IMG/VR virus record: IMGVR_UViG_3300011335_000575
Coordinates: 1-63,223 of that record
Direction: 5' to 3' (one strand)
DNA: 63,223 nt
Source of the DNA: a virus
Taxonomy: Duplodnaviria; Caudoviricetes
This document shows positions 1-60,886 of this stretch, in pieces (the stretch's first letter is position 1; each line of letters starts with the position of its first letter). The position numbers were made by a program, and so were the translations under genes. Below the pieces are notes generated by a model, which was given only the letters and a program-made list of their open reading frames with translations, was not told the origin of the DNA and searched no databases.

Positions 1-142
1 AAATCAACTGTACTTTCCCATTCGCCAATACCATTACATTCTTCACATCTGCTATCTTCGCCTAGACAATCTAAACAAAAATGTACGATATGTTTTTGAT
101 GAATAGTTTTGCCTTGATACTGTATTGTGTCATTTTCCATTT

Positions 143-334
143 TTACTCCTCGTTTTTTCTTATCCAACCACACTCAAGTAAATAATCTCTTGGTTCAGAT
201 AAATATTTTTCTGTTATTGTTTCAAGTGCCAATTCGTACAATTCACTTCTATTCATGTCTTGAACAAATTCTTCAGCACTTTTTATAACTTGTTCTTGTT
301 CTTCTAAAGTTAGTTCTTGTTCTTTAGTCGTCAT
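143..334 (-). CDS. small acidic hypothetical early protein
   Basis: 63 aa ORF with AAAGGAGG RBS, part of the minus-strand small-gene array. Confidence 0.7.
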   Translation of the reverse strand: MTTKEQELTLEEQEQVIKSAEEFVQDMNRSELYELALETITEKYLSEPRDYLLECGWIRKNEE

Positions 335-486
335 TTTTCCTCCTTTAGTTGTCCATTACTATCAAAATAATATTTATTTCGTAGTTCTTCTACAAAAGAG
401 TGCATAGTATCTAAATCAACATCAACACCATTTTTTAATTCTGATATTTGACTATGTACCCATTCCATTTTTTCGTAATCAGTCAT
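331..486 (-). CDS. small hypothetical early protein (MTDYEKMEWVHSQ..., 51 aa, not in ORF track)
   Basis: Read manually; AAAGGAGG RBS upstream; ATGA overlap with the next gene. Confidence 0.6.
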   Translation of the reverse strand: MTDYEKMEWVHSQISELKNGVDVDLDTMHSFVEELRNKYYFDSNGQLKEEK

Positions 487-612
487 TGTGCCTCCTTTAG
501 TTCACACTCACAATCATCATTATAAAAGTAATTAGGAAAGTTTTCTTTCATAAATATATCCTCACATTCAAAACAAATATATTTACTTTCAGTATCACAG
601 TTTTTACATTCG

Positions 613-822
613 TTATTCAAGTTGTGCCTCCTCTAGTTGATTTGCTCTTTCTTTCGTATCCACTAATACAATGTCATAACTTTCGCACCAATCTTGAAAG
701 TCATCTTCGGTATCTTTCCATTGTTCTGCGAAATGTTCGTCATCTTTTATTAGTTCAAGGTACTCGTCCCAAGCGTCTTGGGTAGTCATATAACTATAAA
801 ATGTTTTATTTATGTGTCCCAT
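613..822 (-). CDS. acidic hypothetical early protein (allele of 62572..62781)
   Basis: 69 aa; clearly homologous to the ORF at the other window end. Confidence 0.75.
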   Translation of the reverse strand: MGHINKTFYSYMTTQDAWDEYLELIKDDEHFAEQWKDTEDDFQDWCESYDIVLVDTKERANQLEEAQLE

Positions 823-829
823 AATTACC

Positions 830-1084
830 TCATATTACTGGTATAGTTGGTAAATCTTCATCACTTGTAAATAAAGCCCCTCCGTCATTACCCTCATCGT
901 CCATCGATGGTGTAAGCCAAGTTCCATTACTTAAAAGAATTTGAATTGGTCTCTTATACCAACCTTGTTTTTTTGCTAGTTTTTCTGGCATATAATCTAC
1001 TTTAATTATTTTTTTACCAACTAACACTTTACTTATTCTTTCTATCCATTGTAGTTCTAGTTTTTTTTCATCTATTTCAGTCAT
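830..1084 (-). CDS. hypothetical early protein, SxDxEGNxxG family (homologues at 62789 and 61619)
   Basis: Shared LVGKKI and PSxDxEGNxxGxLFT motifs; GGAGG RBS. Confidence 0.8.
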   Translation of the reverse strand: MTEIDEKKLELQWIERISKVLVGKKIIKVDYMPEKLAKKQGWYKRPIQILLSNGTWLTPSMDDEGNDGGALFTSDEDLPTIPVI

Positions 1085-1251
1085 TTTAGTTCCTCCATTG
1101 TTAAGTTATTCCACTCCTCGTCATCATAGTCTTTTCCTATGAATTCTATTTTATCGTTTAGCCAATTTTCATAGGCCTCTTTTTTATTTTTACCTATGAC
1201 TTTCCATTTTCTAATTAGCTTTGGATATTCTGTTATTACAAAAGTTTTCAT

Positions 1252-1479
1252 TTATCCCTCCTCACATTCACAGCGTTCGTCATTTAAAAAATAATCTTCA
1301 CAATTATCACAATAAGTATAATCGTCATCTATTGGATTATGGTAAAATACAATTCCACCTTCTATATCGTGGGGTTCTTTTAAATCTTGTTTATTACAAG
1401 TATCTAAATAAGCCCAATTTGTATGACCATAATTTTCTTCGCAATAGTCATCTATGTTTTCTGAAAAGTCTCTGCTCAT
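1252..1479 (-). CDS. acidic hypothetical protein with CxxC
   Basis: 75 aa, AAAGGAGG RBS. Confidence 0.65.
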   Translation of the reverse strand: MSRDFSENIDDYCEENYGHTNWAYLDTCNKQDLKEPHDIEGGIVFYHNPIDDDYTYCDNCEDYFLNDERCECEEG

Positions 1480-1792
1480 TTATCCTCCTTTATATTCTTT
1501 AACAAGTTTTTTAAAAAATTTAATTAAGTTTTTAAATTCTTCATTAGCACTTGTTTCATTAGTGAGCCAATTAATTTTAGAATTAATTGTTAATGCTTTA
1601 ACCATTTCTTTTTCTAGTTCATTAATAGTCATACCCCAATCCCCCTTGTATCTATTTCTTGTTTAATGAAATCTTTAAAATAGTTTTCAAGTATCGTTGG
1701 TTTTTCAAGTGAGGTATATAATTTATATTCCTCTCTTAACTTTCTGTCATTAAAAGTTTTAATGTACTGTTTAATAACTTTTATATCTTCTT

Positions 1793-2137
1793 TCATGCTA
1801 CTTTCCTTTCTAGTTTTTTAGCGTCCATCATAAATCTTTTAGGTTGAAGATTTACTAGCCAATCACTTACTGACGGGATAAATCCACAATCTTCCATAAT
1901 ATGTTGTTCGCCGATTGTTTTAACGGGTACTTTTTTATTATCTGAATTGATAATATAATCGCCAAACTTTTCAACACATTCTTCAACGCCAAGTGAGTGG
2001 TGTCGTAATGCTCTGTGTCTAAAATCTGGGTGGTAAGACTTTGTAAAATCAAACCATTTATGGATTGCGATATAATCTTCTATTCGCCCACCATAACGAT
2101 TTACTGTTGCTTGGGCATGGATTACTGGTGTTGCCAT
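1793..2137 (-). CDS. DUF6915-like His-rich protein
   Basis: Motifs HAQ..GG..EDY..IH.WFD, HRALRHH, GEQHIMED recognised from memory of the family. Confidence 0.7.
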   Translation of the reverse strand: MATPVIHAQATVNRYGGRIEDYIAIHKWFDFTKSYHPDFRHRALRHHSLGVEECVEKFGDYIINSDNKKVPVKTIGEQHIMEDCGFIPSVSDWLVNLQPKRFMMDAKKLERKVA

Positions 2138-2691
2138 TATAGTTCCCCCTCATCAGTATTTCTTTCGTAAGTTTCAACGCTCTCTTGTCCGTCTCTTTCC
2201 CACGAATAATTAAATACATCTAGTTTTACAGTTCCACTTACACTAAACTCCCCCGCAAAACTGCCATATTCTTCTAATGCACCCGTTGAGTAAAGTGTTT
2301 CTTCAAGTACATCTAAAAGGTTTTTCTCTACATTTGATATAGTATAAAAGACAGAAATCTTTTTTGCTTTCTCATTATCAAATTTGTAAATATTTTTTTT
2401 ATCTACAAAAAATCTAAAGTCCCGTCTAATTTCAAACTCATCTTTGAGTTTGATTTCTTCTGATTTATCGTTTGCAAGATATACATCATCAAAACCCCCG
2501 TCATCATTACCACCAGAAAATGTTCCGATAATATATTTCACATTGTATCTTATAAAAGTATCTTTTAATTCTTTTAAGATTTCTTTTACATATTCTTGCT
2601 CTGCTTTTTTTTCTAAAGTTTCTACTTTTTTTCTTGCGTCATAATCGTAGCTACCTTTAGTCTTTATTTCTTCTATGAGTGTTAGGCTCAT
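2137..2691 (-). CDS. DUF6878-like protein
   Basis: FSGGNDDGG motif and acidic C-terminus; coupled to the DUF6915-like gene. Confidence 0.5.
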   Translation of the reverse strand: MSLTLIEEIKTKGSYDYDARKKVETLEKKAEQEYVKEILKELKDTFIRYNVKYIIGTFSGGNDDGGFDDVYLANDKSEEIKLKDEFEIRRDFRFFVDKKNIYKFDNEKAKKISVFYTISNVEKNLLDVLEETLYSTGALEEYGSFAGEFSVSGTVKLDVFNYSWERDGQESVETYERNTDEGEL

Positions 2692-2904
2692 TTTTTTACT
2701 CCTTTGTTAGTTTGTTAGTGTGATTAAACTCTAGGGCTACTCCTATTTTGACGATATTTAATTATCGTATTAATCACTCCCATGTTATCCCATTATTCGT
2801 TTTTTCTGTCAAATGTTAAAAACCCTTATTTTTCACTATTTAGTTGTATAAAAATCTTGTTTAAATGAACGTATATGCTTAAGTTGGGCTTGGTACGGGG
2901 GTTA

Positions 2905-2928
2905 GTACCCCCTAAATTAAGGGGGTAC
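2905..2928. terminator. GC-rich hairpin, possible terminator
   Basis: GTACCCCCT/AGGGGGTAC stem just past the stop of 2939..3478; poor U-tract. Confidence 0.4.
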
Positions 2929-2938
2929 GAAAGTTTAA

Positions 2939-3478
2939 TTATTTTTGCCAATATCCATAAACACATCTTGTTGCATCTCTTGAGCAATCATAAGTATCAT
3001 TGATTACTCCATTTATTACTGCAACTAAATGTCTTGAAACACTAACTATTAATTTACCCATTGGCAATTCGCCCTGTCTTAAATGTACCTTGCAACCTTG
3101 CCCAATGAACATTGTCGGTGTCCATTTAAAACCCAAGTCTAAAAGATATTTTCGACAAACATCTTTTTTAACTCCAGTTCTAGCTGTGTCATCTTTTGGA
3201 CTTGCATTATAAGTCCATTTTTTATTTGAGGTTAATCTAATATGACGAGTTAAATTTGTTAAATCATCATATACTTTTTGATAAGGTAAATCTGCAACGA
3301 TTGAAATTGCTCTTGTCACACAATCCCCCGTATTGCCTTTATACCCCGCCTCTTTTCTACCACCATCATTGTACTTATATTCCAAAGTGTAATATTCTTT
3401 TCTAAAACTGATCCCGTCTTTTGTACCGAGTTCAATTTTTTTTACACTTGGTTTGCTGTGTAGTATTATCTCACTCAT
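2939..3478 (-). CDS. conserved phage hypothetical protein (GDCVxRA ... H ... D)
   Basis: 179 aa; Cys/His/Asp pattern compatible with a papain-like fold (inference). Confidence 0.7.
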   Translation of the reverse strand: MSEIILHSKPSVKKIELGTKDGISFRKEYYTLEYKYNDGGRKEAGYKGNTGDCVTRAISIVADLPYQKVYDDLTNLTRHIRLTSNKKWTYNASPKDDTARTGVKKDVCRKYLLDLGFKWTPTMFIGQGCKVHLRQGELPMGKLIVSVSRHLVAVINGVINDTYDCSRDATRCVYGYWQK

Positions 3479-3515
3479 TTTTTTCCTTTGTTTTGATAGT
3501 CATTGTTAACTATCT

Positions 3516-3539
3516 CAATGCCCTGACATCAGGGCATTG
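3516..3539. promoter_or_regulatory. perfect 11 bp inverted repeat (hairpin or operator)
   Basis: CAATGCCCTGA-ca-TCAGGGCATTG in the intergenic space. Confidence 0.55.
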
Positions 3540-3545
3540 GGTTAA

Positions 3546-3836
3546 TTAAAATTCAGACCAATTTATTAAAGATTTTTTATTACTGTTTTCTAGTTTATCA
3601 ATAATAAATTCTTTAATTTTATCTTTTAATGATTGAGTAAAATCCTCATCCATTGAAAAATCATCTAGGTTGTATTCGCCAAACTTTAATCTTTCTTGAA
3701 AAGTATGGTCGATATGCTCATCCATAAATATCTCTACATTTATTATTGGATAGTAGCTTTTTTCATATTCACTCATTTTTTCTCCTTTTTTAGTTTTTCT
3801 TATTTGTAATATTATATTATAAAAAATATCATACAA
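3546..3836 (-). CDS. acidic hypothetical early protein (true start probably MSEYEK)
   Basis: ORF track; AAAGGAG RBS precedes the internal Met. Confidence 0.6.
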   Translation of the reverse strand: MYDIFYNIILQIRKTKKGEKMSEYEKSYYPIINVEIFMDEHIDHTFQERLKFGEYNLDDFSMDEDFTQSLKDKIKEFIIDKLENSNKKSLINWSEF

Positions 3837-3933
3837 GAAAAAAATGAGGTCGATTTGTGGGTGTGGATAATTTTACATACTATTAGTAGGTTGCACTAAA
3901 AACACATTTTTGTTGTAAGTGTGCAACACGCCA

Positions 3934-4068
3934 TAAAGTTGTACTCGTTAAAGTTGTACTCGTTAAAGTTGTACTCGTTAAAGTTGTACTCGTTAAAGTT
4001 GTACTCGTTAAAGTTGCACTCGTTAAAGTTGCACTCGGTTAGGTTGTACTCGTTAAGGTTGCAAGAGC
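3934..4068. repeat. 15 bp tandem repeat TAAAGTTGTACTCGT, about 9 units (5 perfect, 4 degenerate)
   Basis: Read directly; no spacers between units. Confidence 0.95.
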
Positions 4069-4157
4069 CGTGACACGTGATAGTTGTATCGTGTGTTGGT
4101 TGTATCATGTGCTATAAGCGAACATTCAAGGAACACGGAACACGGGTCACGGAAATT

Positions 4158-4746
4158 GGGTTAAGTCATTGTTTTATATAGCTTTTTTGGTTTGTAAAGT
4201 TGTAATTTACAGATTTACATGGGATAAATTGTTTTTTGAGTGTGTTTTTTAAGGGTTAAGTCATTGTTTTATATAGTTTTTTTGGTAGATAGGACAGTTT
4301 TGCGAACTAAAAGTGAAATAAGCTAAAGAGTTGTGGGGGTTTCAGAGGCGGAAAAAAAATCACGAGCCAAAATAGCCAAAATTCAGCGATAGTTGGGATT
4401 ATCCCACGTGACGCTGAAAGAATAACCATTGGTATATATAGCGTTTCAGCGTTTCAGCGATATTTCATACCTTTTGCAAAATTTTTTTAAAATTTTTTTT
4501 CTATATAACTGCTTTAGCACGGAAAACGGAAAAATGGCGTAAATGCTACATAATTTTTTTAATTTTTCCGTGTCGGTTTTTGTCATCTGGTTAAACCATT
4601 GATTTTAAACACTTTTTAGCATTCCGTGTAAATGAGGGTTAGAACTATGCGGGTTATTTGCATATAGGGGTCAAAAATGGCGTAAAATGAATAGTTGGTT
4701 TTCAGCGTTGAGGGCAATTTTTCAGCGTAGCTATAAGTCATTGATT
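4158..4746 (-). promoter_or_regulatory. cluster of IHF-consensus-like sites
   Basis: Reverse complements of 4592-4604 and 4734-4746 match WATCAANNNNTTR; 4162-4174 and 4257-4269 have one mismatch and lie in a 24 bp direct repeat. Confidence 0.55.
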
Positions 4747-4839
4747 TTAAATACTTTTTTAAAAACACCTAGTAAATATGCGGTTTTTTACATAGGTATA
4801 TTAAATATCATATTTGTATTATTATGAGGTCAATAATTT

Positions 4840-5355
4840 ATGGGACGTAGAAAAAACGAAGTAAAACTAAGCACCGATTTAACTCCTAAGCAACGGGCGT
4901 TTGTAGATATATTAGTTGCTAACTGGGGAAACATATCTAAAGCTGACGCTTGTTTACAAGCGGGTTATACAACTAAAGACCCGAATAGAAAACCTTTTGA
5001 AATTGCCTCACGTCTTACAAATCCCGAAATTAATCCGCATATTTGTAGGTACTTAGAAAAAAGATTATCTCAAGAATTAAATAAATACGAAAAAGATAAA
5101 TTACGCTCATATAAAAATTTTGAGCGATTAAGAATTAAAGCTGAGGAAAAAAATCAATTAGCCTCAGCGATTAATGCTGAATTTAGAGCGGGTCAAATGG
5201 CGGGTTTTTATGTCGATAAAAAAGAGATTAATCATATCGGTTTAGAGGGAATGAATAGAGAGCAATTAGAAAAAAGACTGTCGGAATTAGAAAAAAATAT
5301 AAATGAAAATAAACAAATTATCGACATTACAGCTGAAACAATTATCGAAAAATAG
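4840..5355 (+). CDS. terS: terminase small subunit
   Basis: LTPKQRAFV...A...AGY...ASRL N-terminal HTH typical of TerS, followed by a helical region. Confidence 0.8.
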   Translation: MGRRKNEVKLSTDLTPKQRAFVDILVANWGNISKADACLQAGYTTKDPNRKPFEIASRLTNPEINPHICRYLEKRLSQELNKYEKDKLRSYKNFERLRIKAEEKNQLASAINAEFRAGQMAGFYVDKKEINHIGLEGMNREQLEKRLSELEKNINENKQIIDITAETIIEK

Positions 5356-5441
5356 TGACTGGAAAACTTTTATTAATCAATTTAATAAAGTTCATAACAA
5401 TCATATCAGTTCGAGTGTTGGCAACGTACAAATAAAAACAA

Positions 5442-5738
5442 ATGATAAAAAGAAAATTAATAAATAAAAAAGCAAAAAAAGAGATTGAAAAATATCCATT
5501 AGTAGTCATTAAATGGTATGACATCACTAGCGATAGTACTTGGCAATCAATAGAGGATTTAACCAATGCAAAATTGCCAATATGTACTACAAAGGGGCAT
5601 TTATTGAGCCATAATAAAGGCATTGCAAGGGTATTTAGTGACTACGCCCTTAAAGATGAAAAAACGGGCGTAATTGATGAAATAGCCAATACAACTTTAA
5701 TTCCGACCTCAGTAATAATTGATATTAAAAAAATTTAA
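5442..5738 (+). CDS. conserved phage hypothetical protein
   Basis: YPLVVIKWYDI...TKGHL...IP pattern. Confidence 0.7.
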   Translation: MIKRKLINKKAKKEIEKYPLVVIKWYDITSDSTWQSIEDLTNAKLPICTTKGHLLSHNKGIARVFSDYALKDEKTGVIDEIANTTLIPTSVIIDIKKI

Positions 5739-6073
5739 GCAACTATAAAAATATCAACTAATTTATTTTTATCTAAATGTATCTCTATGTTGCAATCACT
5801 AACTAAAAGATTGTCGCAATCATTAGTTAATGGTTTATCAATATCGCACTTATAACTAAAAACCTTGTTAACTTGTCTTAAAAATTCTGGTTTTTTGTCA
5901 TAGTCACAAGCGTATTGAATTGGCAATAATTCGAGATTGTCATTTATTTTTTTAAAATAATTACTGCTATTCTCAACCTCTTTATATTGCCACGCTATTG
6001 TCTTACACTTATCTATTAAATTAAACAGCCAATCTTCATTTAGATAGTGTTTAATTGACGTATGCCCCGCCAT
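5735..6073 (-). CDS. hypothetical protein
   Basis: 112 aa, follows 6075..6263. Confidence 0.6.
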   Translation of the reverse strand: MAGHTSIKHYLNEDWLFNLIDKCKTIAWQYKEVENSSNYFKKINDNLELLPIQYACDYDKKPEFLRQVNKVFSYKCDIDKPLTNDCDNLLVSDCNIEIHLDKNKLVDIFIVA

Positions 6074-6074
6074 A

Positions 6075-6263
6075 TTATTTTAACCTCTTAGTTTTATTCT
6101 CTTTATAATAGTTAATTAAATGCTCTATTGTTTTTGCATAACTTAATTTAACGTCATAAATATTATTGGATAAGTCGGTCAACTCATCATAAATTTTTTT
6201 ATGTACGCTTACAGGCTTATAGTTCGTAAACTCATAGGCCGTCTTTACTTGTCTATTACTCAT
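6075..6263 (-). CDS. small ribbon-helix-helix-like DNA-binding protein
   Basis: YKPVSVHKKIYDEL...SYAKTIEHLI beta-alpha-alpha pattern. Confidence 0.5.
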   Translation of the reverse strand: MSNRQVKTAYEFTNYKPVSVHKKIYDELTDLSNNIYDVKLSYAKTIEHLINYYKENKTKRLK

Positions 6264-6805
6264 ATTTTATTTTCCTTTTTTATTGTTTATTTAACCCACT
6301 TATCAACGCTGTACTTATTGGCATTAATGCGGGTTGCCTTGTAATTTTTATCAAAATTATTATTTTTAGTAAAATAAATAATCTTAATAAAATTCTTTAA
6401 TACAACTATTAATAAAATTATAAAAACAGTTGTTATACATATATTGTAAATCATTTTGTTTTATTTTTTGTTTTTGATTTTTTTAAAAATGAAATAAAGC
6501 CTTTATATTCGGTTTTTATATCCTCATTATAGGCATTACTCCACGCCTTTTTTATTTCTTTAAGTGTGTAGACTTTCATTTTAATTTACTCCTTTGTTGT
6601 TAATTACATTCAATTTTAAAATTCTTTTTTTAAAATTTTAAGTTCTTGAATTTCTTTTAAAGTTTTTTTTAATGTCAATTCAACTGTTGTTAATGAATTG
6701 GATATCCAACTGGGATATTTTTCATTAAAAGATTGAATAGTTAAAACTTCTATTTCTTTAATTATTTTTTCTATTTTTTGTACTTTCATTTGTTTACCTT
6801 TGTTT

Positions 6806-7513
6806 TTAGTTTACATTTATTACAAAGCCCGTTTTATCGGTTTTTGCAATGCCCTTAGTTGCTAAGCCTACTATTACGCCCTTAGGCTCTAAAAACCTAA
6901 GGTCACTAATATCCCCGTCTATTACGGGTCTATTTAAGTAAGTTTTTGGCAACTTACCATTAAAAACAACCGCTATATTAAAAGCCGTTGTTAATAATTC
7001 TTTAATTTCATTATCATTACTTTCCGACTTGCTAAAAGTTAAGTGATAATTTTTTGGCAACTTAACGCTTAATCTATTTTTAATTTTTGTATAATCATAA
7101 AATATAACATCTGGGTTTAATTCCATTATGTTTTTATTATCTTTTATAATGTACCTCTCCCACAATAAATCTGACGTACCATTCAATCGCACGGCGGGTT
7201 TTAAACCTTTTTTAATTGCTCTTTTTTTAAAGTTTTTAACCTCATTATCTAATTGCAATAAAAATTTTTGGCGGTCTTTTAAAAAGTAATAAGTTTTATT
7301 TAAACGGCTTTTTTGAGTAAATTCAAATCGACCTCGACCGCTTGTATTTAAACACGCTGTTGCACATCCTACTGAGGCCTTAGGGCATATATTAACCCCG
7401 CTTAATTTGTGCGGGGCTAAGTGTAAAATTGCGGTAAGATACCCTAATTCAATGCTCTTAAGCATTTTTGTATTATTAATGCCTAAGAGCCTTTTTTGTG
7501 GTTTATATTCCAT
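6806..7513 (-). CDS. Gp88-family protein
   Basis: CP.AS.GC..ACL..SGRG, VRLNGTSD, FYDYTK, YHLTFS, DGD..DLRFL motifs. Confidence 0.85.
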   Translation of the reverse strand: MEYKPQKRLLGINNTKMLKSIELGYLTAILHLAPHKLSGVNICPKASVGCATACLNTSGRGRFEFTQKSRLNKTYYFLKDRQKFLLQLDNEVKNFKKRAIKKGLKPAVRLNGTSDLLWERYIIKDNKNIMELNPDVIFYDYTKIKNRLSVKLPKNYHLTFSKSESNDNEIKELLTTAFNIAVVFNGKLPKTYLNRPVIDGDISDLRFLEPKGVIVGLATKGIAKTDKTGFVINVN

Positions 7514-8446
7514 TTATGCAACCGCCTTTAATTCAACTTGTTTTATTTTTTTTAATAAATAATCAGTTGCTTTATAAGCACGGGTTAGGGATGAGGTTAA
7601 AAACTTAACGTCATTTTTTAACGCTTGTATCCAACTTTTAATATATAAAGCGTGGTCAACTCTAATTGTTTTTTCTAAGTTGAATTTTTGGCATAACATT
7701 ATTGCCCCGCATTCCGCAATTAATTCCTCAAAGGCGTATGATTGCTGAGCATTATCTTTAAATTTTTTGTCATTATCTTTAAAGCGGTCGAGCCTTTGAG
7801 CGTGGCCAGTTGAGTGTATCAACTCATGAAATAAGACCGAATAATAGTTGCTTGTCTCATCCCCGTATGACGTTTTAATAAAATTCTCTTTATTTGTCAT
7901 ATGGATATAGTCGGTTGTTTTTGCATAATAACAACGGCCGTCATTACTATGTTTAATTTCAACCCCCGTGTCATTAACAAAATTATCAATTTCTTGAATT
8001 GATATAACTTTGTTAACATTATCTGAATTATCAAATTTAATTTTACATTCAGACAAATCAACTTGAGCAATATTAAAAACTGGCGTTGCTTTTAAAAATG
8101 GAATGACATCCTCTTTATTTGTTTTTTCATTCTCTTTTTTAAACGTGCCGTAGTATAAAACTTTGGCCTTGTGTGTCTCGCCTTTAATTATTTTTGCCCC
8201 TATTTTATGCCAGTCGAGATAAGACGCCCATAAATTTTGAGCAAAATTATTCGAATTAGCAACCCAGTTTAAATTAAAAAAATTCGTGCTGTTATAATGT
8301 TTACCAGTCACGGCATTAGTTGGCATATTTTTATTAATAAAAGAGTTATGCCATTTATTAGGGTTATTTTGTAATTGCTCAACTAAGTTGTCACGAATAG
8401 TTGTTAAATATTCCTTAGCTGATACTTTATTCAAGTTATTAGTCAT
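7514..8446 (-). CDS. ardC: ArdC-like ssDNA-binding/anti-restriction protein with zincin domain
   Basis: N..TGK.Y...N, VFNIAQ, HELIHSTGH, YAFEELIAE, YIKSW motifs. Confidence 0.85.
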   Translation of the reverse strand: MTNNLNKVSAKEYLTTIRDNLVEQLQNNPNKWHNSFINKNMPTNAVTGKHYNSTNFFNLNWVANSNNFAQNLWASYLDWHKIGAKIIKGETHKAKVLYYGTFKKENEKTNKEDVIPFLKATPVFNIAQVDLSECKIKFDNSDNVNKVISIQEIDNFVNDTGVEIKHSNDGRCYYAKTTDYIHMTNKENFIKTSYGDETSNYYSVLFHELIHSTGHAQRLDRFKDNDKKFKDNAQQSYAFEELIAECGAIMLCQKFNLEKTIRVDHALYIKSWIQALKNDVKFLTSSLTRAYKATDYLLKKIKQVELKAVA

Positions 8447-8586
8447 TTGTTTACCTTTGTTATTTGTTTAATACTCATCTAACTAATTTAATTTGATACA
8501 AAATAAAAGAAAAAAATGCAAAATATTACAAAATAAAAGATAATAAAAACAATAGGATATTGACCCCTTAGTTATTCAATTATAAG

Positions 8587-9012
8587 TTGCATTTAATGAA
8601 TAAAACAACTGAAAGTGACATCTTTAAACTAATTAAAAAAGCCGTAATTAATCTTAAATTAAATTGTTTTTTAACTAGAATTGAAAGCGGGTTGACTTTG
8701 AATGGCATACCAGATTTATACGTGGTTTATCATTCTAAATTGATTAATAAATCAATTAGTTTTTGGCTCGAATTAAAAGCCAATAACTCTAAAAATTGCA
8801 ACGTTTCAAAGTACCAATTCAACTGGATATTAAAACACAATAAAGCGGGGGGCGTTGCCTATATCCTCAATAAGCCCCTCAAGGAGCGGGGGCTTAAACT
8901 TTATAGCGTTGAGCCGTGCTCCGTGCTGACTGAGCAATTAAGCGTAGATTACAGCGTCACGGGCGTGGCTAACGTACTTGAGCACGTTGCCAAAAAACAT
9001 TGCAATCATTAA
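8587..9012 (+). CDS. PD-(D/E)XK / VRR-NUC-like nuclease, possible Holliday junction resolvase (start probably 8596)
   Basis: RIE...GIPDL...WLELK...Q..W motifs. Confidence 0.75.
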   Translation: MHLMNKTTESDIFKLIKKAVINLKLNCFLTRIESGLTLNGIPDLYVVYHSKLINKSISFWLELKANNSKNCNVSKYQFNWILKHNKAGGVAYILNKPLKERGLKLYSVEPCSVLTEQLSVDYSVTGVANVLEHVAKKHCNH

Positions 9013-9227
9013 TAAATTTCCGATAATCTTTACTTATCACTTATGATATATTGTTATATAATCTAATAAGATTGAGCCGTGAGCCGTGCAACCTACAGTT
9101 GAGGCTCAATAGACAAGCCACAATAAAAGATTTTAAATGCAACTTTTACGGGAATTTTTTAAAAAAAGAGTAGCTTTCGGATGGACTATTGTGCAGGACT
9201 TATACATACAGTACAGTTGATTTTATT

Positions 9228-10715
9228 ATGGAACCTAATTCTACTAATGTTGACCTGTTAACCACTGATCAGTTACGGGAAAAAGTTGAGCGTGCATGGA
9301 TCCAACATATCAAGCTGTGCCAGGATAATTTTTTATATTTTGTAAAAGAAGTGTGGCCTGACTTCATTTTTCGTAAAGAAACTAATAGGACCCGTTGGGG
9401 ACACCACCAGATCATCGCTAATGAATTTACTAAGATAGCAAATAACAAAAAAGGGAGGCTCATTATTAACATGCCCCCACGTCATACTAAATCTGAGTTT
9501 GCTTCTGTTTACTTTCCTGCATGGATCATAGGAAAGTATCCTAAGATGAAATTAATGCAGGTGTCACACAATGCTGAATTATCTGGAAGGTTTGGTAGTA
9601 AGGTTCGTAACTTAATTGATTCACCACAATATAAACAAATCTTTGGTGATGTAAGGCTCAGAGAAGATTCTAAAGCCAAAGGACGTTGGGAAACAAATCA
9701 CGGCGGTGAGTATTACGCTGCGGGTGTTGGTGGTTCCATTACAGGTCGTGGTGCAGATTTATTAATTATTGATGATCCTCATACAGAACAAGACTCATTG
9801 TCTAATACTGCTATGGAGCGAACATATGAATGGTATTTATCAGGACCCAGACAACGATTACAACCAGGTGGTTCCATTTTGTTAGTTATGACTAGGTGGG
9901 CTGAAGATGACCTTACTGGTAGATTAATCAAGGCTCAAGCAGAACCTAAAGCAGACAAGTGGAAGTTAATTTCATTTCCAGCAATTTTAGATTCAGGAGT
10001 CCCTGTTTGGCCTGAGTATTGGAATTTAGAAGAATTAGAAAAAGTTAAAGCATCATTAAGTATTAGAAACTGGTCTGCACAGTATATGCAGAATCCTACA
10101 TCTGAAGAGGGTGCCATTATAAAACGAGAATGGTGGAAGCCTTGGAAGTTTGATGACATACCAAATCTACATCACGTAATACAAAGTTATGATACGGCGT
10201 TTAGTAAAAAGGAAACTGCCGATTATTCTGCTATTACTACGTGGGGTATATTTCAACCTAAGGAAGATCAGCCATATGCAATGATATTGTTAGATGCCAT
10301 TAAAGGTAAATTTGATTTTCCAGAATTAAAGAACATAGCATTTGAACAATATAAATATTGGGAACCAGAAACAGTTCTTATTGAGGCTAAAGCCTCAGGC
10401 CAACCTTTACTACAGGAGTTTAGAAGAGCGGGTATCCCTGCCGTAGACTTTAGTCCTAATAAAGGAAATGACAAGTTTACTAGGATAAATTCATGTGCTC
10501 CTGTATTTGAAGCGGGGAATGTTTACTACCCAGATGGTGAGAAATTCGCTATGGATGTTATTGAGGAGTGTGCTGCGTTTCCTCATGGCCAGTATGACGA
10601 TTATGTGGACAGTACTACTCAAGCCGTGTTAAGATACCGACAAGGTAGCTTTGTTAGTACATATATGGATTATGTGGAAGAAGAGCGTCCGCCAAAAGAA
10701 TATAAATATTACTAG
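9228..10715 (+). CDS. terL: terminase large subunit
   Basis: PPRHTKS Walker A, IIDD Walker B, SYDTA and DDYVDS nuclease motifs; ATG at 9228 preferred over TTG at 9189. Confidence 0.95.
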   Translation: MEPNSTNVDLLTTDQLREKVERAWIQHIKLCQDNFLYFVKEVWPDFIFRKETNRTRWGHHQIIANEFTKIANNKKGRLIINMPPRHTKSEFASVYFPAWIIGKYPKMKLMQVSHNAELSGRFGSKVRNLIDSPQYKQIFGDVRLREDSKAKGRWETNHGGEYYAAGVGGSITGRGADLLIIDDPHTEQDSLSNTAMERTYEWYLSGPRQRLQPGGSILLVMTRWAEDDLTGRLIKAQAEPKADKWKLISFPAILDSGVPVWPEYWNLEELEKVKASLSIRNWSAQYMQNPTSEEGAIIKREWWKPWKFDDIPNLHHVIQSYDTAFSKKETADYSAITTWGIFQPKEDQPYAMILLDAIKGKFDFPELKNIAFEQYKYWEPETVLIEAKASGQPLLQEFRRAGIPAVDFSPNKGNDKFTRINSCAPVFEAGNVYYPDGEKFAMDVIEECAAFPHGQYDDYVDSTTQAVLRYRQGSFVSTYMDYVEEERPPKEYKYY

Positions 10716-39612: not shown

Positions 39613-40854
39613 ATGGATCCATTAACAATTGCCCTCGCCATATATGGGGGATATCAAGGATATAAAAGTGCTAAGAAATCTGGTGCTGGTACAGGTGGCA
39701 GAATATTAGGAACAGCTCTAGGAGCATATGGTGGATACAATTTAGGATCAGGAATTACAGGCTCAGCATTAGGCCAACAATATTTACCTTCATTTTTAAC
39801 ACAGCCTGTTACACCAGGAGTAAGTGAAATGTTATCTTCTGGCATAGGATCACTTTCTAGTATTGTTCCAAGTTTTGGAACAGAAGCTGCAACACAAGCA
39901 GTAACAGATGCTGCAACACAAGCAGCAATAGAAGGTGGAACTCAAGCAGCAGGCATAGGAGCATTTAATCCATACGCTGGAATGACAGATAAATTTGCAG
40001 GAACAAGTTTAGGATTTACACCTTTAGAAACTTTAAGTGCTGCACCATCCTTATCAGTGCAAGATCTTTCAGGAACAAGTTTAGGAATGGATATGAGTAG
40101 ATATCCTTATGAACAGGTTGTTAAAGCTCCAGTAGAAAAACCTTTTTTAGATCAAGTAACAGAAACAGGAAAAAAAGCATACAGTTATTTACTTGAAAAA
40201 CCAGTTAAAGGTGGAATGCCTGGTGAAAGAGAATTAGATGTTGGTAAGGCAGCTTTAATAGGATTGCCTGCAATAAGTTATTTATCAGGAGCATTTGAAA
40301 GAAAACCTTATGAAAGAAGTCTATTTACATATAACGTAAATTATCCAGATTTATATAGAAGTAGAAAATTTTATAAACAAGATCCAAGAACTGGAGAAGT
40401 CATAGAAGTTCCTCAACAAGATTATATTCCAGAAGAAAGAGCCGATGTTCAAGAAGGATCTAAATTTGGTCCATACAAAAGAGAAACAATTACTTTACAA
40501 CAAGGTGGACTAGCTAGCTTAAATCATTTTAAAGATGGAGGTGTTAATTATTTACCATCTAAAACTGTTCATGATGAAGATGATGAAGATAATTATATAA
40601 GAGTGAATGGTTATGTAGAAGATGGTGCTGGTAATGGAGATAAAGAAGAAGATACAATGTTAGCTCAATTAGCGGATGGAGAATTTGTTACAAGAACAGA
40701 TGGTGTTTTAGGAGCAGGTATATTAGCAGGGGCTAATCCTAAAGACCCAAAAGATATGAGAAAAAAAGGAGCAGAATTCTTTTATGAACAACAAAGACGT
40801 TTTAAAAGAATTTATGATTTATTAGATGCAAGCAGAAAAGCAACAGCACATTGA
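39613..40854 (+). CDS. internal virion / DNA ejection protein (putative)
   Basis: Gly/Ala-rich N-terminus, LADGEFV motif, LQQGG and FKDGG. Confidence 0.6.
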   Translation: MDPLTIALAIYGGYQGYKSAKKSGAGTGGRILGTALGAYGGYNLGSGITGSALGQQYLPSFLTQPVTPGVSEMLSSGIGSLSSIVPSFGTEAATQAVTDAATQAAIEGGTQAAGIGAFNPYAGMTDKFAGTSLGFTPLETLSAAPSLSVQDLSGTSLGMDMSRYPYEQVVKAPVEKPFLDQVTETGKKAYSYLLEKPVKGGMPGERELDVGKAALIGLPAISYLSGAFERKPYERSLFTYNVNYPDLYRSRKFYKQDPRTGEVIEVPQQDYIPEERADVQEGSKFGPYKRETITLQQGGLASLNHFKDGGVNYLPSKTVHDEDDEDNYIRVNGYVEDGAGNGDKEEDTMLAQLADGEFVTRTDGVLGAGILAGANPKDPKDMRKKGAEFFYEQQRRFKRIYDLLDASRKATAH

Positions 40855-41314: not shown

Positions 41315-42366
41315 TTGATTTAAAGACACTTACATTAAAAGAAAAGATAGCTTTATTTAAAACTCTTTACAAAGAAATTGCTGGTAAAGGTATTGAAGGA
41401 GATACTGAACTTGCTCACATAAATCCATTTGAAGCTAAACTTCTTAAACAACATGGTGGAGCTGGAACTATTAATGAAGAAACTGGATTAAGACAATATC
41501 TTGGTGGTGGAGGTGGAGGTGGACAAGCGGCTCCCGATACAACTACACAATTTGTAAGAGAAGCTCCAGGTATTGAAGAACGTAAAATTGAATTAATGGA
41601 TATAGCACGTAGTGCTGCTGAAAAACCATTATATGCAAACGTTCCTGATGTTAGAGTTGCAGGACTTGGAACATTAGAACAACAAGGAGTTCAACAAGCT
41701 GGAGTTACAGGTGTAGGTCAACCTACAACTCAAGCAGGAATTGGTTCTGTATTACAAGGACAACAAGCAGCTTTTGCTGGTCCAAACATTTCTCAATTTT
41801 ATAATCCATATCAATCTTATGTGTTAGATGAAATTAATAGACAAGCTCAAATTGCACAAAACCAATTATCAGCACAAGCAGTACAAGCTGGTGCATTTGG
41901 TGGTGGTAGAGAAGGTGTTCAAAGAGCAGAACAAGAAAGAGCAAGACTCGGTGCAATTGGACAAGCTCAACAACAAGGTTTTCAAACTGCATTAGGTGCT
42001 GCACAAAATCAACAACAACTACAAGCTCAAACAGGTTTACAAGCTGGACAACAATTAGGACAACTTGGTGTGCAACAACAAGCTATGTCACAAGCTGACA
42101 TTAATCAATTAATGGCTGCAGGGGGATTACAAAGACAACTTACACAACAAGCATTAGACGCTGAAAGACAAACAGCATTACAAAGAGCAACAGAACCTTT
42201 ACAACGAGTAGAGTTTTTGTCAAACGTATATGCTGCTGGACCTAAATCAACTTCAGGAATCACGGCTGCTACTGCTCCGACAACAAGTCCTTTAGCACAA
42301 TCATTAGGCACTGGATTAGGAGCGTATGCTACATATCAAGCATTACAACCTAAGGCTACTGCATAA
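41311..42366 (+). CDS. internal virion / ejection protein
   Basis: Gln/Gly-rich; GDTELAHI.P.EA, NPY, AGAFGG.R. Confidence 0.65.
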   Translation: MIDLKTLTLKEKIALFKTLYKEIAGKGIEGDTELAHINPFEAKLLKQHGGAGTINEETGLRQYLGGGGGGGQAAPDTTTQFVREAPGIEERKIELMDIARSAAEKPLYANVPDVRVAGLGTLEQQGVQQAGVTGVGQPTTQAGIGSVLQGQQAAFAGPNISQFYNPYQSYVLDEINRQAQIAQNQLSAQAVQAGAFGGGREGVQRAEQERARLGAIGQAQQQGFQTALGAAQNQQQLQAQTGLQAGQQLGQLGVQQQAMSQADINQLMAAGGLQRQLTQQALDAERQTALQRATEPLQRVEFLSNVYAAGPKSTSGITAATAPTTSPLAQSLGTGLGAYATYQALQPKATA

Positions 42367-43361
42367 TGGATAAGATATTAACTAGAAAATTATTTAAAGA
42401 CAGATACTTACAAACAATAAGTAAAAAAGTATCTAATTTTAAAGAAGGAGGACTTGCTTCTTTAAAAGCTAAACACTATCAATTAGGCGGATTAAGTGAA
42501 GGTGAAAGAACAGCTATGTTACTTCAACCTATTGCAACACAATTATTAACTGGAACTAGACAACCAGGACAATCTGAACTTTCAGCAGTAGCTACAGCTT
42601 TTGGACAAGCTTTACCACAAGTAACTAAAACAAGATTAGCTATAGATGAGGCTGAAACAAAAAGATTAGAGCAATTAGCAAAATTAACAAAAGAAGGTAA
42701 AGATAGAACAATAGTTCAACCTTTAAGTCCACAACAAATAAAAGATAGAGGGTTTGCTCCAGGCACTAAAGCAGAACAAGAATTTATATATACCTCTGCA
42801 GGAGAAATAATTCCAGGTAAAACTAATATTATAGAAAAGCCTAGTGCTGAAGCATTAAAAACAAGAAACGAATTAATAAATACTGTAAATACTTTAAATA
42901 GAATTAATGATCAATATATAGAATTAGGTAGACCAGTTGGAATGGTAGATCTACAACAGATTAAAGCAAAACTAGGAGAAGCTGGTGGTTCCGATTATTC
43001 AGTAAGATATCAACGTTTTAAAAATGATATTGAACTAACAAGTGCATTTTTAAATAAAGCTATATCTGGAGCAGCTATTTCTGAAAAAGAAAGAGCTATA
43101 TTAAAAGCTCTTATTCCAAGTGTAAATGATAGTGAAGCTCAGTTTGAAGCTAAATATCAAACAGCAAAAAGATTTTTAGGAGATTTAGCTAGAACAATAG
43201 AAACTAATCCAGAGTTAAGTCCAGAAGAAGCCGTAGGTCAAATTAAAACAACTTACGTAAAAGATAAAATAACTAAACCTGATAATGCAGTTACAAGAAG
43301 AGCTGAAGGTGGAAAAACATTAACTATATCAGATCTTAAAAAAATAGCTGGAGAAAAATAA
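42366..43361 (+). CDS. internal virion / ejection protein
   Basis: Position; SGAAISEKE; FKEGG and YQLGG. Confidence 0.6.
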   Translation: MDKILTRKLFKDRYLQTISKKVSNFKEGGLASLKAKHYQLGGLSEGERTAMLLQPIATQLLTGTRQPGQSELSAVATAFGQALPQVTKTRLAIDEAETKRLEQLAKLTKEGKDRTIVQPLSPQQIKDRGFAPGTKAEQEFIYTSAGEIIPGKTNIIEKPSAEALKTRNELINTVNTLNRINDQYIELGRPVGMVDLQQIKAKLGEAGGSDYSVRYQRFKNDIELTSAFLNKAISGAAISEKERAILKALIPSVNDSEAQFEAKYQTAKRFLGDLARTIETNPELSPEEAVGQIKTTYVKDKITKPDNAVTRRAEGGKTLTISDLKKIAGEK

Positions 43362-45661
43362 TGGGAATTATTAAAGTTGAAGGTTTAGGAGAAGTTCAAA
43401 TTCAAGGAGATACACCTACCCCAGAAGAATCTAGACTTATATTAAAAGCTGCTGAAGTTAAAAAACAAGAAAAAATAGCAGAAGAACTTCCATCTACACA
43501 AGAAACATTCGTTACAGAAAGAGAATTATCAAGTGGTTTAACAAAAGAAGAAATAGCTGCTCAAGATAAAGCTTTATCTGATTTTATATTATCACCTGAA
43601 TTTGGAAGATTAGTTCTTGAAGTAGGAGGAGCAATAGGTGGAGCAGCTTTGACAGGTGGATTAAGTGCACCTGCAAGTATAGCTAGAATAGGAATGATTT
43701 CAAAACCATTCTTAAAACAATTATTAAAAAGTTCAGCTGGAGCTGGAGTAGGATCTGGAACAGGTGGAGGAGTAGCACAAATCATCGATCCTAAAGATGA
43801 TATGGTTAAAGAAATAGTAAGAGCTTCTATTGAAGGTGCAGCGGGAGAAGCTATTGGATTACCTATAGCAAAAGTTGTTGAAAAAGCTATAGCACCAGCA
43901 GTTAAAACATTAAAAGGTGCTGATGATGCTGCTAGAATAATTGAAGAACAAAGAGAAATTATTAATAAAGGATTAGCTACCGCTAAAACACCAGCAGATA
44001 GAGAAGCATTATTAACGGCTGCTAAAAATGGAATATTAACACCAGGTCTTATTGCGGATAATCAATTTATAGATATATTACAAAACATTGCTGAAGTATC
44101 TTTACTTGGATCTGGAGGTATAAGAGCAGCAAAAGAAGGAGCAGAAACAATTGCAAAATCTGGAATTGATGATTTTGTAGAACAATTTATAAAAACACAA
44201 GATAGATCTGCAACAGGACAATTATTTCAAACAGCCATCACAAAAAATCAAGATGCTTGGAATTCTCTTGTTAGTTCTAAATATAAAAATGTTGATAAAT
44301 TATTAGGCTCTACAAAACAAGTTGATCCAGTAACAGGTATAGAAAAAGTAATAGACCCTACTATTATAGATACAACTCCTTATAAAACAGCAATAAAACA
44401 ACAGATAGCTAAATTAGAAAGAGTTGCAAAAGGTAAGTCAGATCCAGAGGCAATAGCTTTACTGAAAGAACAATTACAAATTCCAGACAATGCTAGTTTT
44501 TCTCTTGTTAATGATTATAGATCAAAATTATTAGAAAGAGGAAGATACTTTAGCCCAGATGCTAAAAATTTAAGATCTTTTAAAGATACTTACATGACAC
44601 TACAACCAAGAATAACAGATTTATTAGAAAATGCACCATTAGGTTCAGGAGTGTCTACAGAAGCTAAACTAGCTTGGAGACAAGCTAATCAATTCTATAA
44701 AGAAGGTATACAAGATTATAGTGATGAAGTTATTGTTAAACTTTTAGAAAAAGATCCAGAATTAGTATTTAAAGAAATTATAAAAGCAGGAGATAGACCA
44801 ACTGTAGTTAAAGAAACATTTGATATTATTAACAGACGTTTTACTACACCAGCAGAAAAAGTTGTTGCAGAAAATTTAAAAACTTCTTTAAAAGGAGAAT
44901 TTTTAAGAAAAGTTATAAATGATTCTACAGACTCTGTAGGACAATATACTGTGTTAAGTTCTAAAAAAATTAATGATTTAATTGGCCAAGGTGGTAAATT
45001 TGAAGATACTGCAAAAGCATTATTTACTAATCAAGAATATAATAGAATTAATCAATTAAAAGACGCTTTAGAGTTTGCACAAGGTAGACTAAAACAAGCT
45101 GGAACACCTCCAGGTGCAATATTCTTTCAATTAAAACAAGCAGGAGCTGCTGGAACAATATTAGCAATAGGTGGAATGCAAGCAATTGAAGGTGATTATG
45201 GAACTGCTGCTGGAATAGTTTTATCTCCTGTAGCTTTAGGTTATGCTTTATCTAGTCCTAAAGTAATAAATTATATGATAAAAGGTGCTAAAGCAAAAAA
45301 TCCAACAGTGGCTGGTACGGCATTTAGACAAACAATATCTCAATTAATATCTGAAGGAACTATTGATAGAAAAGAAGGTGAAAGAGTTATTCAGGAATCT
45401 TACAATATAGAAAAAGAATCTAAACCACAAAAACAAGAACCTAGATCTCAAGTTCCTACAGCTAAACCTGTAGTACAACCTGTAGCTCAAGCTACACCAA
45501 CTTTAACAGCACCACCTGTAAATATATTTGCAGCAGGAACACCAGGAACGCCAATGACAACGGGTACTACACCTATGGCACAGCCTATGGATAAAGCACA
45601 ACAATATGCAGGACTATTTCCATTTGATGTAACAGGACAACAAATTGCGAGACAAGGATGA
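43361..45661 (+). CDS. large internal virion / ejection protein
   Basis: 766 aa helical protein with Gly/Ala hydrophobic segments; C-terminal LFP.D. Confidence 0.65.
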   Translation: MGIIKVEGLGEVQIQGDTPTPEESRLILKAAEVKKQEKIAEELPSTQETFVTERELSSGLTKEEIAAQDKALSDFILSPEFGRLVLEVGGAIGGAALTGGLSAPASIARIGMISKPFLKQLLKSSAGAGVGSGTGGGVAQIIDPKDDMVKEIVRASIEGAAGEAIGLPIAKVVEKAIAPAVKTLKGADDAARIIEEQREIINKGLATAKTPADREALLTAAKNGILTPGLIADNQFIDILQNIAEVSLLGSGGIRAAKEGAETIAKSGIDDFVEQFIKTQDRSATGQLFQTAITKNQDAWNSLVSSKYKNVDKLLGSTKQVDPVTGIEKVIDPTIIDTTPYKTAIKQQIAKLERVAKGKSDPEAIALLKEQLQIPDNASFSLVNDYRSKLLERGRYFSPDAKNLRSFKDTYMTLQPRITDLLENAPLGSGVSTEAKLAWRQANQFYKEGIQDYSDEVIVKLLEKDPELVFKEIIKAGDRPTVVKETFDIINRRFTTPAEKVVAENLKTSLKGEFLRKVINDSTDSVGQYTVLSSKKINDLIGQGGKFEDTAKALFTNQEYNRINQLKDALEFAQGRLKQAGTPPGAIFFQLKQAGAAGTILAIGGMQAIEGDYGTAAGIVLSPVALGYALSSPKVINYMIKGAKAKNPTVAGTAFRQTISQLISEGTIDRKEGERVIQESYNIEKESKPQKQEPRSQVPTAKPVVQPVAQATPTLTAPPVNIFAAGTPGTPMTTGTTPMAQPMDKAQQYAGLFPFDVTGQQIARQG

Positions 45662-58021: not shown

Positions 58022-58165
58022 ATGGCTAAGAAAAAAGAAACATTACAAGACATCTTAGATAGAATTAATGAGGACATTGAAACTATCAGAGAAAAAGTCG
58101 AAGAATTAGAAAATCATGAATGTGATTCTGATAATGACTTCGATGATGAAGACGAAGACGAGTAA
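58022..58165 (+). CDS. 47 aa coiled-coil protein with acidic tail
   Basis: Read manually; AAAGGAG RBS. Confidence 0.7.
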   Translation: MAKKKETLQDILDRINEDIETIREKVEELENHECDSDNDFDDEDEDE

Positions 58166-58266
58166 ATATAAGCAAAAATAGCATAATTGACTTATGCTAA
58201 ATTTAGTAATAAAATCAATGACATAGAGTATCATACTCTATTTTTTCCTTTCATTGTTTAAAGTTT

Positions 58267-58294
58267 CCTCCCCCTTGAAAAAGGGGGAGGTTTT
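58267..58294. terminator. terminator hairpin between convergent genes
   Basis: CCTCCCCCTT-GAAA-AAGGGGGAGG-TTTT. Confidence 0.8.
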
Positions 58295-58300
58295 ACTATT

Positions 58301-58570: not shown

Positions 58571-58656
58571 GTTTTTCCTTTTGTTGTTTTATATTGTATT
58601 TAGTCTATGGAGATAGACTGTCAATATAATTTAAAAAATATAACGCATGAGTTGAA

Positions 58657-58998: not shown

Positions 58999-59049
58999 AT
59001 TATCCTATATTGTTTGTTGGTTGTATCTATAAGTGCAACCTATCAAGTA

Positions 59050-59077: not shown

Positions 59078-59080
59078 ACT

Positions 59081-60856: not shown

Positions 60857-60886
60857 AATAATAGCCGTCTATTGTTTTTTTATTTC

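Follow-up and report, generated by a model that had tools for sequence, protein, structure and literature searches.

The window analysed here is the IMG/VR virus record IMGVR_UViG_3300011335_000575 at its full length (63,223 nt, 31.8% G+C, classed as linear and 100% complete). The recognition words GANTC and GATC, together with a number of other short words, are missing from or depleted in a single block of this genome, which extends across the record ends to the start of the large terminase subunit gene terL and encodes an ArdC-type anti-restriction protein (gene ardC); the remainder, referred to as the backbone, carries GANTC and GATC at chance density. We observe the purge, its edges, its recurrence in relatives and the continuing selection that maintains it. 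The reading that we favor, with a probability of about 0.55, is that restriction sites are avoided in a leading, early anti-defence block of about 13.5 kb of unique sequence and 36 open reading frames (ORFs), ardC among them, and only there. Nucleases would then be the selecting agent, the block would be expressed or would enter the cell first, and a virion end may lie close to terL.

GANTC occurs at 108 sites in the window, none of them in 1-9617 or beyond 58124; to the right of the gap the sites begin at 9618, 9666, 9792, 9990, 9997 and 10091. GATC occurs at 161 sites, of which that at 3410 is the only one in 1-9266 and five lie beyond 58124 (58324, 58861, 59187, 59907 and 61450). An earlier note on this DNA had reported no GANTC in 1-9617 or from about 58130 to the end, and GATC once (3410) in the early stretch, not after about 61453 and commonly from about 9267. 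Our recount agrees on both words, and the GANTC positions listed in that note are correct except for 10071, where there is no site; the real one is at 10091. Its figure of about 14 kb on a circle needs adjustment, in that the gap is real and spans 14,712 nt, with no GANTC in 58125-63223 or 1-9617, but the record is linear with an overlapping end. The terminal 782 bases (62442-63223) are a 91% copy of 483-1237, the 480 nt before the copy are without a match, and the two versions look like strain variants joined by the assembler within a hypervariable gene set. In the 61.9-kb relative G001 the matches to 61277-61620 and 1-155 adjoin, and both halves of the GANTC gap are contiguous. The terminal copy and this contiguity indicate that the record is one turn of a map of about 62 kb that overlaps itself with a strain variant. 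Owing to the copy, the unique part of the gap is about 13.5 kb, and the unique block is defined as 58129-62441 plus 1-9188.

In the 14,712-nt gap, 32.8 GANTC sites are expected from the density of the rest of the window, 27.6 from dinucleotide composition and 22.0 from a maximal-order Markov model, and none is observed. Synonymous-codon shuffles, in which every protein and the codon usage of the block are preserved, give expectations of 13.7 and 17.6 for the gap, with minima of 4 and 8 (500 shuffles each), and of 12.8 and 15.8 for the unique 13.5 kb, where no shuffle in 400 was as low as the observed zero. GATC is seen 10 times in the gap, with 18.7-19.4 expected from the codon shuffles, and six times in the unique block (16.4-17.7 expected, a count as low being reached in 0 of 400 shuffles). 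The same shuffles find the backbone at expectation; it has 108 GANTC (102-104 expected) and 151 GATC (157-162 expected) and does not display the genome-wide low GANTC density of GANTC-depleted pelagiphages. The earlier note had allowed for codon bias as a cause; the depletion survives codon-preserving shuffling, so codon usage does not explain the loss of these words from the block, where they are missing yet present elsewhere (GANTC 0 against 108; GATC 6-10 against 151-155). GASTC is purged as fully as GAWTC (0 GASTC, 4.5-4.9 expected). The same note was mistaken about AGCT, which it described as not depleted; there are 23 copies, against 82.8 expected from the density of the rest and 32-37 from shuffles. 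A local AGCT excess at 42001-44000 (31 in 2 kb) adds to the high backbone counts of words containing AGC or GCT.

The edges of the purge were followed with 13 purged words counted together (tracked words). None occurs in 3411-9230, eight occur in 9231-9500 and 21 in 9501-10000, and this change from clean to dense sequence places a step at the probable true start of terL, ATG 9228, which is the likely start codon judged by alignment. A gene at 8587-9012, oriented as terL and 215 nt upstream of this ATG, is free of tracked words. The sharp edge beside terL proposed in the earlier note is thus confirmed as a step at the terL start codon. The left edge is graded: a 500-nt stretch holds about 11 tracked words at 54 kb, 2-5 between 56.5 and 58.5 kb and 0-2 further on. 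The purge is also polar: the 15 residual tracked sites in the block lie on average 11.0 kb from terL, against 6.75 kb if uniform (z 4.3), and the 13 residual sites in the G001 block are also skewed away from terL (z 3.4).

Whether the purge is a relic or is maintained was addressed by simulation, in which the substitutions between the window and a relative in homologous sequence were randomly reassigned to positions that matched in base and codon position. GANTC and GATC together were then counted, observed against simulated:

L016 block, 5,394 nt, 16% diverged: 1 against 14.2 ± 3.6 (0 of 300 simulations as low)
L056 block, 1,793 nt, 22% diverged: 0 against 6.2
L060 block, 2,511 nt, 16% diverged: 0 against 6.8
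L051 block, 2,566 nt, 17% diverged: 0 against 6.8
L016 backbone, 6,411 nt, 12% diverged: 39 against 35.5
L051 backbone, 7,683 nt, 22% diverged: 63 against 49.7

Control words fell mostly inside the simulated range, with 3 of 24 block controls at a fraction below 0.03. For GANTC alone the pooled simulations give 0 observed against 10.6 and 13.7, in rows that overlap and are not independent. With 0-1 sites in the block against 6-14 simulated, and normal numbers in the backbone, new GANTC and GATC sites are removed from the block only; the purge is under continuing selection there and not elsewhere.

The pattern recurs among 80 contigs that encode relatives of TerL. Thirteen sequences are purged (the window and 12 loci), with 0-10 tracked words over 3 kb on the upstream side of terL and 38-89 over 3 kb on its downstream side; they come from the clade with TerL 95-99% identical to that of the window, from L024 (91%) and from a clade at 75-77%. 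In 18 loci of other clades the 3 kb upstream hold 45-88 tracked words. Four of the purged loci had not been used to pick the words, and these have 3, 1, 4 and 10 upstream against 75, 87, 38 and 78 downstream. The check in relatives suggested by the earlier note thus bears out its observation in both the 95-99% and the 75-77% clades, other clades being without the purge. Upstream of terL in individual loci, the counts are:

L016, 10 kb: GANTC 0, GATC 3
L051, 8.6 kb: GANTC 0, GATC 1
L055, 5.9 kb: GANTC 0, GATC 0
L056, 8.1 kb: GANTC 0, GATC 0
L060, 8.8 kb: GANTC 1, GATC 4

The zone without GANTC extends over all of the inverted block in each case, although that block varies in size, from about 8 kb in L024 to 11.3 kb in G001 and 13.5 kb in the window. 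Minus-strand coding upstream of terL amounts to 0.75-4.2 kb in purged loci (at least 1.5 kb in all but L045), to at most 0.95 kb in most non-purged loci, and to 2.5-3.0 kb in the partly purged L073 and L074. The words themselves differ between lineages. In the 6.5 kb upstream of terL in L074, GANTC is low (1 against 20 expected) and GATC high (29 against 19), which indicates that the two motifs are selected independently, and in L073 only GCWGC is purged. The 75-77% clade (L045, L051, L055 and L056) has low GANTC, GATC and CCGG upstream of terL, and its blocks hold an excess of GCGC (25-34 against 14-16 expected), although this word is absent from the window. These differences fit changing host restriction repertoires. 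Neither purge nor inverted block is found in the cultured marine phages HTVC027P (whole genome) and HTVC023P (first 30 kb), and there is no purge in DSL-LC04 (52% GC). Homologues of block genes in non-purged clades sit in word-rich DNA: two GANTC lie within the match of L044 to the small terminase gene terS, and the kilobase of G004 with most of the homologue of the block's GP88-family gene has 51 tracked words. In non-purged relatives the GP88 homologue is on the plus strand, in a motif-dense stretch beside terL.

Non-purged G004/L044, L052, L041, L050 and L063 have a GANTC-free stretch of 3.2-4.2 kb between terS and the gene of a conserved 141-aa protein, and at 33-35 kb of G004 (13000-15200 of L103) tracked-word density is low over about 2 kb of it, among plus-strand genes, possibly a purge of the same kind on a smaller scale. 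An ArdC scan of viral contigs returned only 14 close relatives, all of the same phage group. No TerL relative was found in 185,579 species genomes scanned, so these offer no prophage or host clue.

GANTC and GATC are not the only words lost from the block. Among 374 testable 5-mers, 23 occur in it at no more than 15% of their backbone rate and 10 are absent, compared with 0-4 low and 0-2 absent in 15 backbone windows treated as controls. Against codon-shuffle expectations, the block has one GTWAC (about 10 expected), no GAAGC (6.3-6.6), no CCAGC (5.4-6.0), no AGCTC (7.4-8.3), two CCTTC (about 12), five CAGG (19-22), four GGAGA (10-13), 17 CATG (27-28) and no CASTG (5-7), while ten control words agree with the shuffles. 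GTSAC is over-represented in the block (17 against 9.7, every shuffle being lower or equal) where GTWAC is nearly absent, as if one had been swapped for the other. Part of the raw contrast between block and backbone is not avoidance, because codon usage and amino-acid content differ between them: CAG occurs in the block at 0.41x and CG at 1.76x the backbone rate, and GCAGC, GCTGG and CAGG are frequent in the backbone through Ala/Gly-rich proteins and NCA/NCT codons before codons starting with G. We have accordingly discounted GCWGC, CCWGG and GGNCC as avoided words, since the shuffles expect only 1-4 GCNGC/CCWGG/GGNCC in the block.

Two words behave in the opposite way. In the backbone (9189-58128), TCGA is depleted (16 against about 50, z about -6), as is GTAC (90 against about 124, z -4), and neither is depleted in the window's block. 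In relatives, TCGA counts in the backbone are low (1 and 17, with 21 and 52 simulated) and their blocks too have less of it, so that the window's block may include cassettes acquired recently. Neither CCGG nor GCGC occurs anywhere in the 63 kb, although codon shuffles predict about 5 plus 19-23 copies of CCGG and about 4-7 plus 18 of GCGC; the avoidance of these two words extends over the whole genome and is distinct from the purge limited to the block.

The features of the block and its borders are as follows:

58129-63223, small ORFs mostly on the minus strand: distal purged part; GANTC 0, GATC five, residual sites rising towards 58.1 kb
1-9188: proximal purged part; GANTC 0, GATC one (3410)
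58267-58290, plus strand: hairpin resembling a terminator, with a 10-bp stem (7 G-C pairs) and a T run, at the convergent junction; it marks where the GANTC-free zone ends on the left, the last GANTC being at 58124
59138-59560, plus strand: Hsp20-family small heat-shock protein, within the block
1793-2137, minus strand: DUF6915 protein, 99-100% identical in relatives with TerL only 76-96% identical
3837-4839: 1-kb non-coding region between divergent gene sets, upstream of the terS-like gene; it contains 8.5 copies of a 15-bp unit (3934-4061) as well as several further direct repeats
4840-5355, plus strand: small-terminase-like protein (PF03592, 4.3e-5, 24.6 bits, below the Pfam cut-off of 26.1)
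6806-7513, minus strand: GP88-family protein (PF17338), no assigned function
7514-8446, minus strand: predicted ArdC-type anti-restriction protein, 310 aa, with ArdcN and zincin-like metallopeptidase domains and the motif HELIH
8587-9012, plus strand: conserved 141-aa protein (phrog_2165, weak match)
9013-9227, plus strand: spacer before terL; tracked-word density steps up at its right end
9189-10715, plus strand: large terminase subunit terL, first gene of the non-purged backbone; first tracked word at 9231

The ORF at 7514-8446 has the domain arrangement of ArdC, with a predicted N-terminal ArdcN single-stranded DNA-binding domain (PF08401, 1.3e-18, residues 12-124) and a C-terminal metallopeptidase domain with HExxH (PF18818, 1.6e-33, residues 152-282); it also matches phrog_7245 (2.9e-57). 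Besides ArdC the block encodes several very acidic small proteins, an Hsp20 and otherwise proteins of no recognized function. A comparison of 20 block proteins with Pfam and PHROGs returned ArdC, the weak small-terminase match and Hsp20, the rest giving doubtful or unknown-function families or no match. Among the block proteins scanned no polymerase or injection-control gene was recognized, and PADLOC had no match for any of the 10 that it was given. The minus-strand ORFs 613-822, 1252-1479 and 61843-62121 encode proteins of 69-92 aa with net charges of -15 to -18; they match no Pfam family above cut-off, with one sub-threshold T4_Y13H match (E 0.0054), and to regard them as candidate DNA-mimic inhibitors is speculative. 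The non-coding region at 3837-4839 could be an origin, a packaging site, a regulatory region or an injection-control site. Upstream of terL, the gene of the 141-aa protein lies at a distance of 560-600 nt in the 12 purged loci listed and of 521-3463 nt in non-purged ones. A GATAA-N7-TTATC palindrome at 9022-9038 is invariant in all seven aligned sequences, the spacer being otherwise diverged, and overlaps a promoter-like site for the terL operon (9034-9062).

A phage-encoded methyltransferase was sought and rejected: window ORFs of at least 80 aa contain no DPPY/NPPY-type motif, bar one DPPF in an 87-residue stop-to-stop frame, and none was found among the window proteins scanned against families. 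Thymidine hypermodification genes are described for some HTVC023P-type clades (PMC9599517), and none was seen among 10 proteins scanned, including those adjoining the polymerase gene.

Outside the block, the genes on the plus strand are ordered as follows:

9189-10715, plus strand: terL
12307, plus strand: portal, followed by the structural genes
49925, plus strand: primase, in the replication module, which extends to about 58.1 kb
51462, plus strand: helicase
53300, plus strand: DNA polymerase

From 58.3 kb to 9.2 kb, across the record ends, there follow 36 mostly tiny ORFs, chiefly on the minus strand, with a median length of 81 aa, compared with 163 aa in the rest of the window. The window's TerL shares 79.5% identity with its counterpart in Pelagibacter phage HTVC023P and 63.2% with the one in HTVC027P. 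HTVC027P is matched by 36 of the 106 ORFs at 27-78% identity, and by only 3 of the 36 block ORFs (weakest E = 2.9e-6). By its shared backbone genes and synteny, the predicted gene set is that of an HTVC023P-type phage with an extra inverted block. The window has no tRNA and no Rfam match; a 24-nt tandem repeat lies at 39879-39951 within a structural gene.

A host of the SAR11 type, within the Alphaproteobacteria, is plausible by homology, namely from the TerL identity to HTVC023P. The earlier note had reached an alphaproteobacterial host through GANTC as the target of the methyltransferase CcrM. The host suggestion stands on this other ground; the CcrM argument is weak, because GANTC is one of at least 10 avoided words, several of them asymmetric, GANTC is normal in the backbone, and the SAR11 phages HTVC023P and HTVC027P are unpurged. 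In an index of sequencing runs the stretch appears in 20 rows, 19 with half or more of its words, from 11 studies whose labels are lake, freshwater, aquatic and estuary metagenomes; these are index matches only and provide a lead to habitat.

The block and the backbone share a virion and the same cells, so selection that differs between them needs a difference in time or role. In the mechanism we propose, the block would be the leading early anti-defence module, bounded by the convergent terminator at 58.27 kb on one side and, beyond the record ends, by the terL start on the other. Recognition sites of host restriction would be selected out of it, as a cut there would be fatal before counter-defence is made, and the backbone, with its packaging, structural and replication genes, would be shielded later and so keep the same words at chance density. 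By analogy, the terL-side end would be packaged last and injected first, with the block following leftwards. ArdC, perhaps together with the very acidic small proteins that the block also encodes, would neutralize restriction before or while the remainder enters. The earlier note had made much the same proposal of a leading segment; the purge it described is real, confined to the ardC block, polar and under selection, and the order of entry and the role of nucleases are probable extensions of this. Contig ends fall within 1 kb upstream of terL in 21 of 71 cases, a mild excess over the 13.8 expected, scattered over 8464-9186 with no single coordinate. It is equally possible that the end lies in the repeat-rich 3837-4839 or that the whole block is a long terminal repeat.

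Known systems offer partial likenesses. Gene 0.3 of T7 (Ocr) is an anti-restriction gene of the leading region. According to PMC10644984, phages T5 and BF23 are sensitive to Type I, II and III systems only if a site is present in the first-step-transfer (FST) region. This region of small pre-early genes resembles the block in that most of the genes have no known function and are arranged in inversely oriented units, with an adjoining repeat-rich non-coding region. The T5 FST differs in being a 10.2-kb terminal repeat, with two-step injection proven by experiment where the window is known from sequence alone, and the T5-type injection stop borders the FST, whereas the repeat-rich region of the window lies inside the block. 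For the T7-like Murciavirus facing the Mme2I Type I system, PMC12455610 reports that the motif counts only in the first-injected region, and its authors predict that such selection needs non-headful packaging. The block would resemble T7-type leading regions as described there, in which a variable early region carries anti-defence genes and the motif it contains decides restriction; that work concerned one Type I motif, whereas many 4-5-nt words are missing here. T7-like phages also have their own RNA polymerase and transcription-coupled entry, while HTVC027P, of the window's family, is described as without an RNA polymerase (PMC12753301).

The leading regions of conjugative plasmids likewise carry ArdC in DNA thought to enter first (PMC7213743, PMC11541004), but a survey of 1751 plasmids reports no consistent depletion of 4-8-bp palindromes in them (PMC13478746), and plasmid DNA enters single-stranded. 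Pelagiphage clades poor in GANTC, clustered by phylogeny, are known among phages of SAR11-type hosts (PMC9516812); their depletion is described per genome, whereas that of the window covers 22% of the genome, has a step edge and leaves the rest at expectation. The literature searched yielded no report of a region-limited, multi-motif purge such as this one. For T5 and T7-like phages the principle has been published, and the window is an unusually clear further case.

Several observations weigh against a leading block shaped by restriction. Block segments have been exchanged between backbones and are 92-96% identical where terL is 76%, so that shared ancestry could mimic replication and the clades are not fully independent replicates. 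The additional words were chosen after the data had been seen, and each alone is weaker than GANTC and GATC, which were named beforehand. Codon usage and Ala/Gly content differ between block and backbone, as noted above, and staged entry does not explain the depletion of TCGA and GTAC in the backbone only. T5's own first-step region gives only a weak short-word signal in the test applied here (4 of 447 5-mers low and GANTC 30 against 30.1, compared with 23 of 374 and 0 against 33 in the window's block). HTVC027P, the cultured relative, lacks its own RNA polymerase, and staged entry is not reported for it (PMC12753301); SAR11 genomes are reported to lack restriction enzymes (PMC9516812). Some of these points would follow if the block were a fast-turnover cassette pool shared among phages, its words reflecting where the cassettes evolved and not their place in the genome. 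The exchanged segments, the backbone-only loss of TCGA and GTAC, the distinct k-mers, codon usage and Ala/Gly content, and the few block ORFs with HTVC027P matches all suit such a history. We nevertheless consider it improbable. With the block's proteins and codons kept constant, shuffling still predicts 12.8-17.6 GANTC; over 16-22% divergence, new sites accumulate in the backbone and not in the syntenic block; the residual sites are polar and not patchy by cassette; the co-oriented gene at 8587-9012 is clean and terL, 215 nt further on, is not; and homologues in non-purged clades (terS in L044, GP88 in G004) lie in word-rich sequence. The step at terL, the polarity of the residual sites and the terL-anchored zones that vary in length by motif and lineage favor a leading block over a cassette-by-cassette history.

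The evidence for selection and its polarity would serve equally if the genome entered whole and only cuts in the block were fatal, the block having to be transcribed intact and other breaks being religated or repaired once restriction is blocked. Polarity could then follow the order of transcription from the terL-proximal side, and such entry agrees with the failure to recognize polymerase or injection-control genes among the block proteins scanned. A 62-kb genome with 108 GANTC and 155 GATC in its backbone would, however, be cut many times before repair, and no ligase or recombinase was recognized among 40 proteins scanned, of about 106 ORFs, which makes whole entry doubtful in our view. The block might alternatively shun the targets of orphan methyltransferases (CcrM at GANTC/GAWTC, Dam- or Dcm-like enzymes), marks on early DNA disturbing early transcription or triggering methylation-dependent defence in the next host. 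SAR11 CcrM homologues are reported to methylate GANTC or GAWTC, a motif under-represented in those genomes (PMC8919816), and about half of 33 pelagiphage genomes are GANTC-poor in the study that found SAR11 genomes to be without restriction enzymes (PMC9516812). Yet the block also lacks seven or more words that are asymmetric or unrelated, GASTC is lost as completely as GAWTC, the backbone is not depleted, and HTVC023P and HTVC027P, grown on a SAR11 strain, are unpurged; methylation avoidance thus appears very unlikely.

The leading-block reading admits a bolder form, which we regard as tentative and rather unlikely, in which the purge map would reflect delivery of the genome in two tiers, as in T5, within a podovirus family for which no such delivery is known. 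The completely clean 5.8 kb (about 9% of the genome) between the terL-side end and the iteron-rich non-coding region, with ardC, would form the first tier and be transferred first; the graded zone up to the convergent terminator would form the second, entering next. The missing words would then read out at least 10 restriction specificities of an uncultured, probably freshwater SAR11-type host, from a group thought to be nearly free of restriction systems.

A 2025 study argued that restriction selects most strongly on the first-injected segment, and noted that surveys of site avoidance had left location out of account (PMC12455610). The window and its relatives provide a natural and very clean case of such sub-genomic selection in an abundant uncultured phage group, with a step edge at one gene start, many motifs, lineage differences and measurable continuing selection. 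If two-tier delivery were true, maps of purged words could predict the entering end, the packaging type and the host restriction repertoire of uncultured phages from sequence alone. Should the proposed link to the order of entry hold, leading regions and fixed-end packaging would be recognizable in metagenomic phages by the same kind of scan, which would also give hints of the restriction specificities of their hosts.

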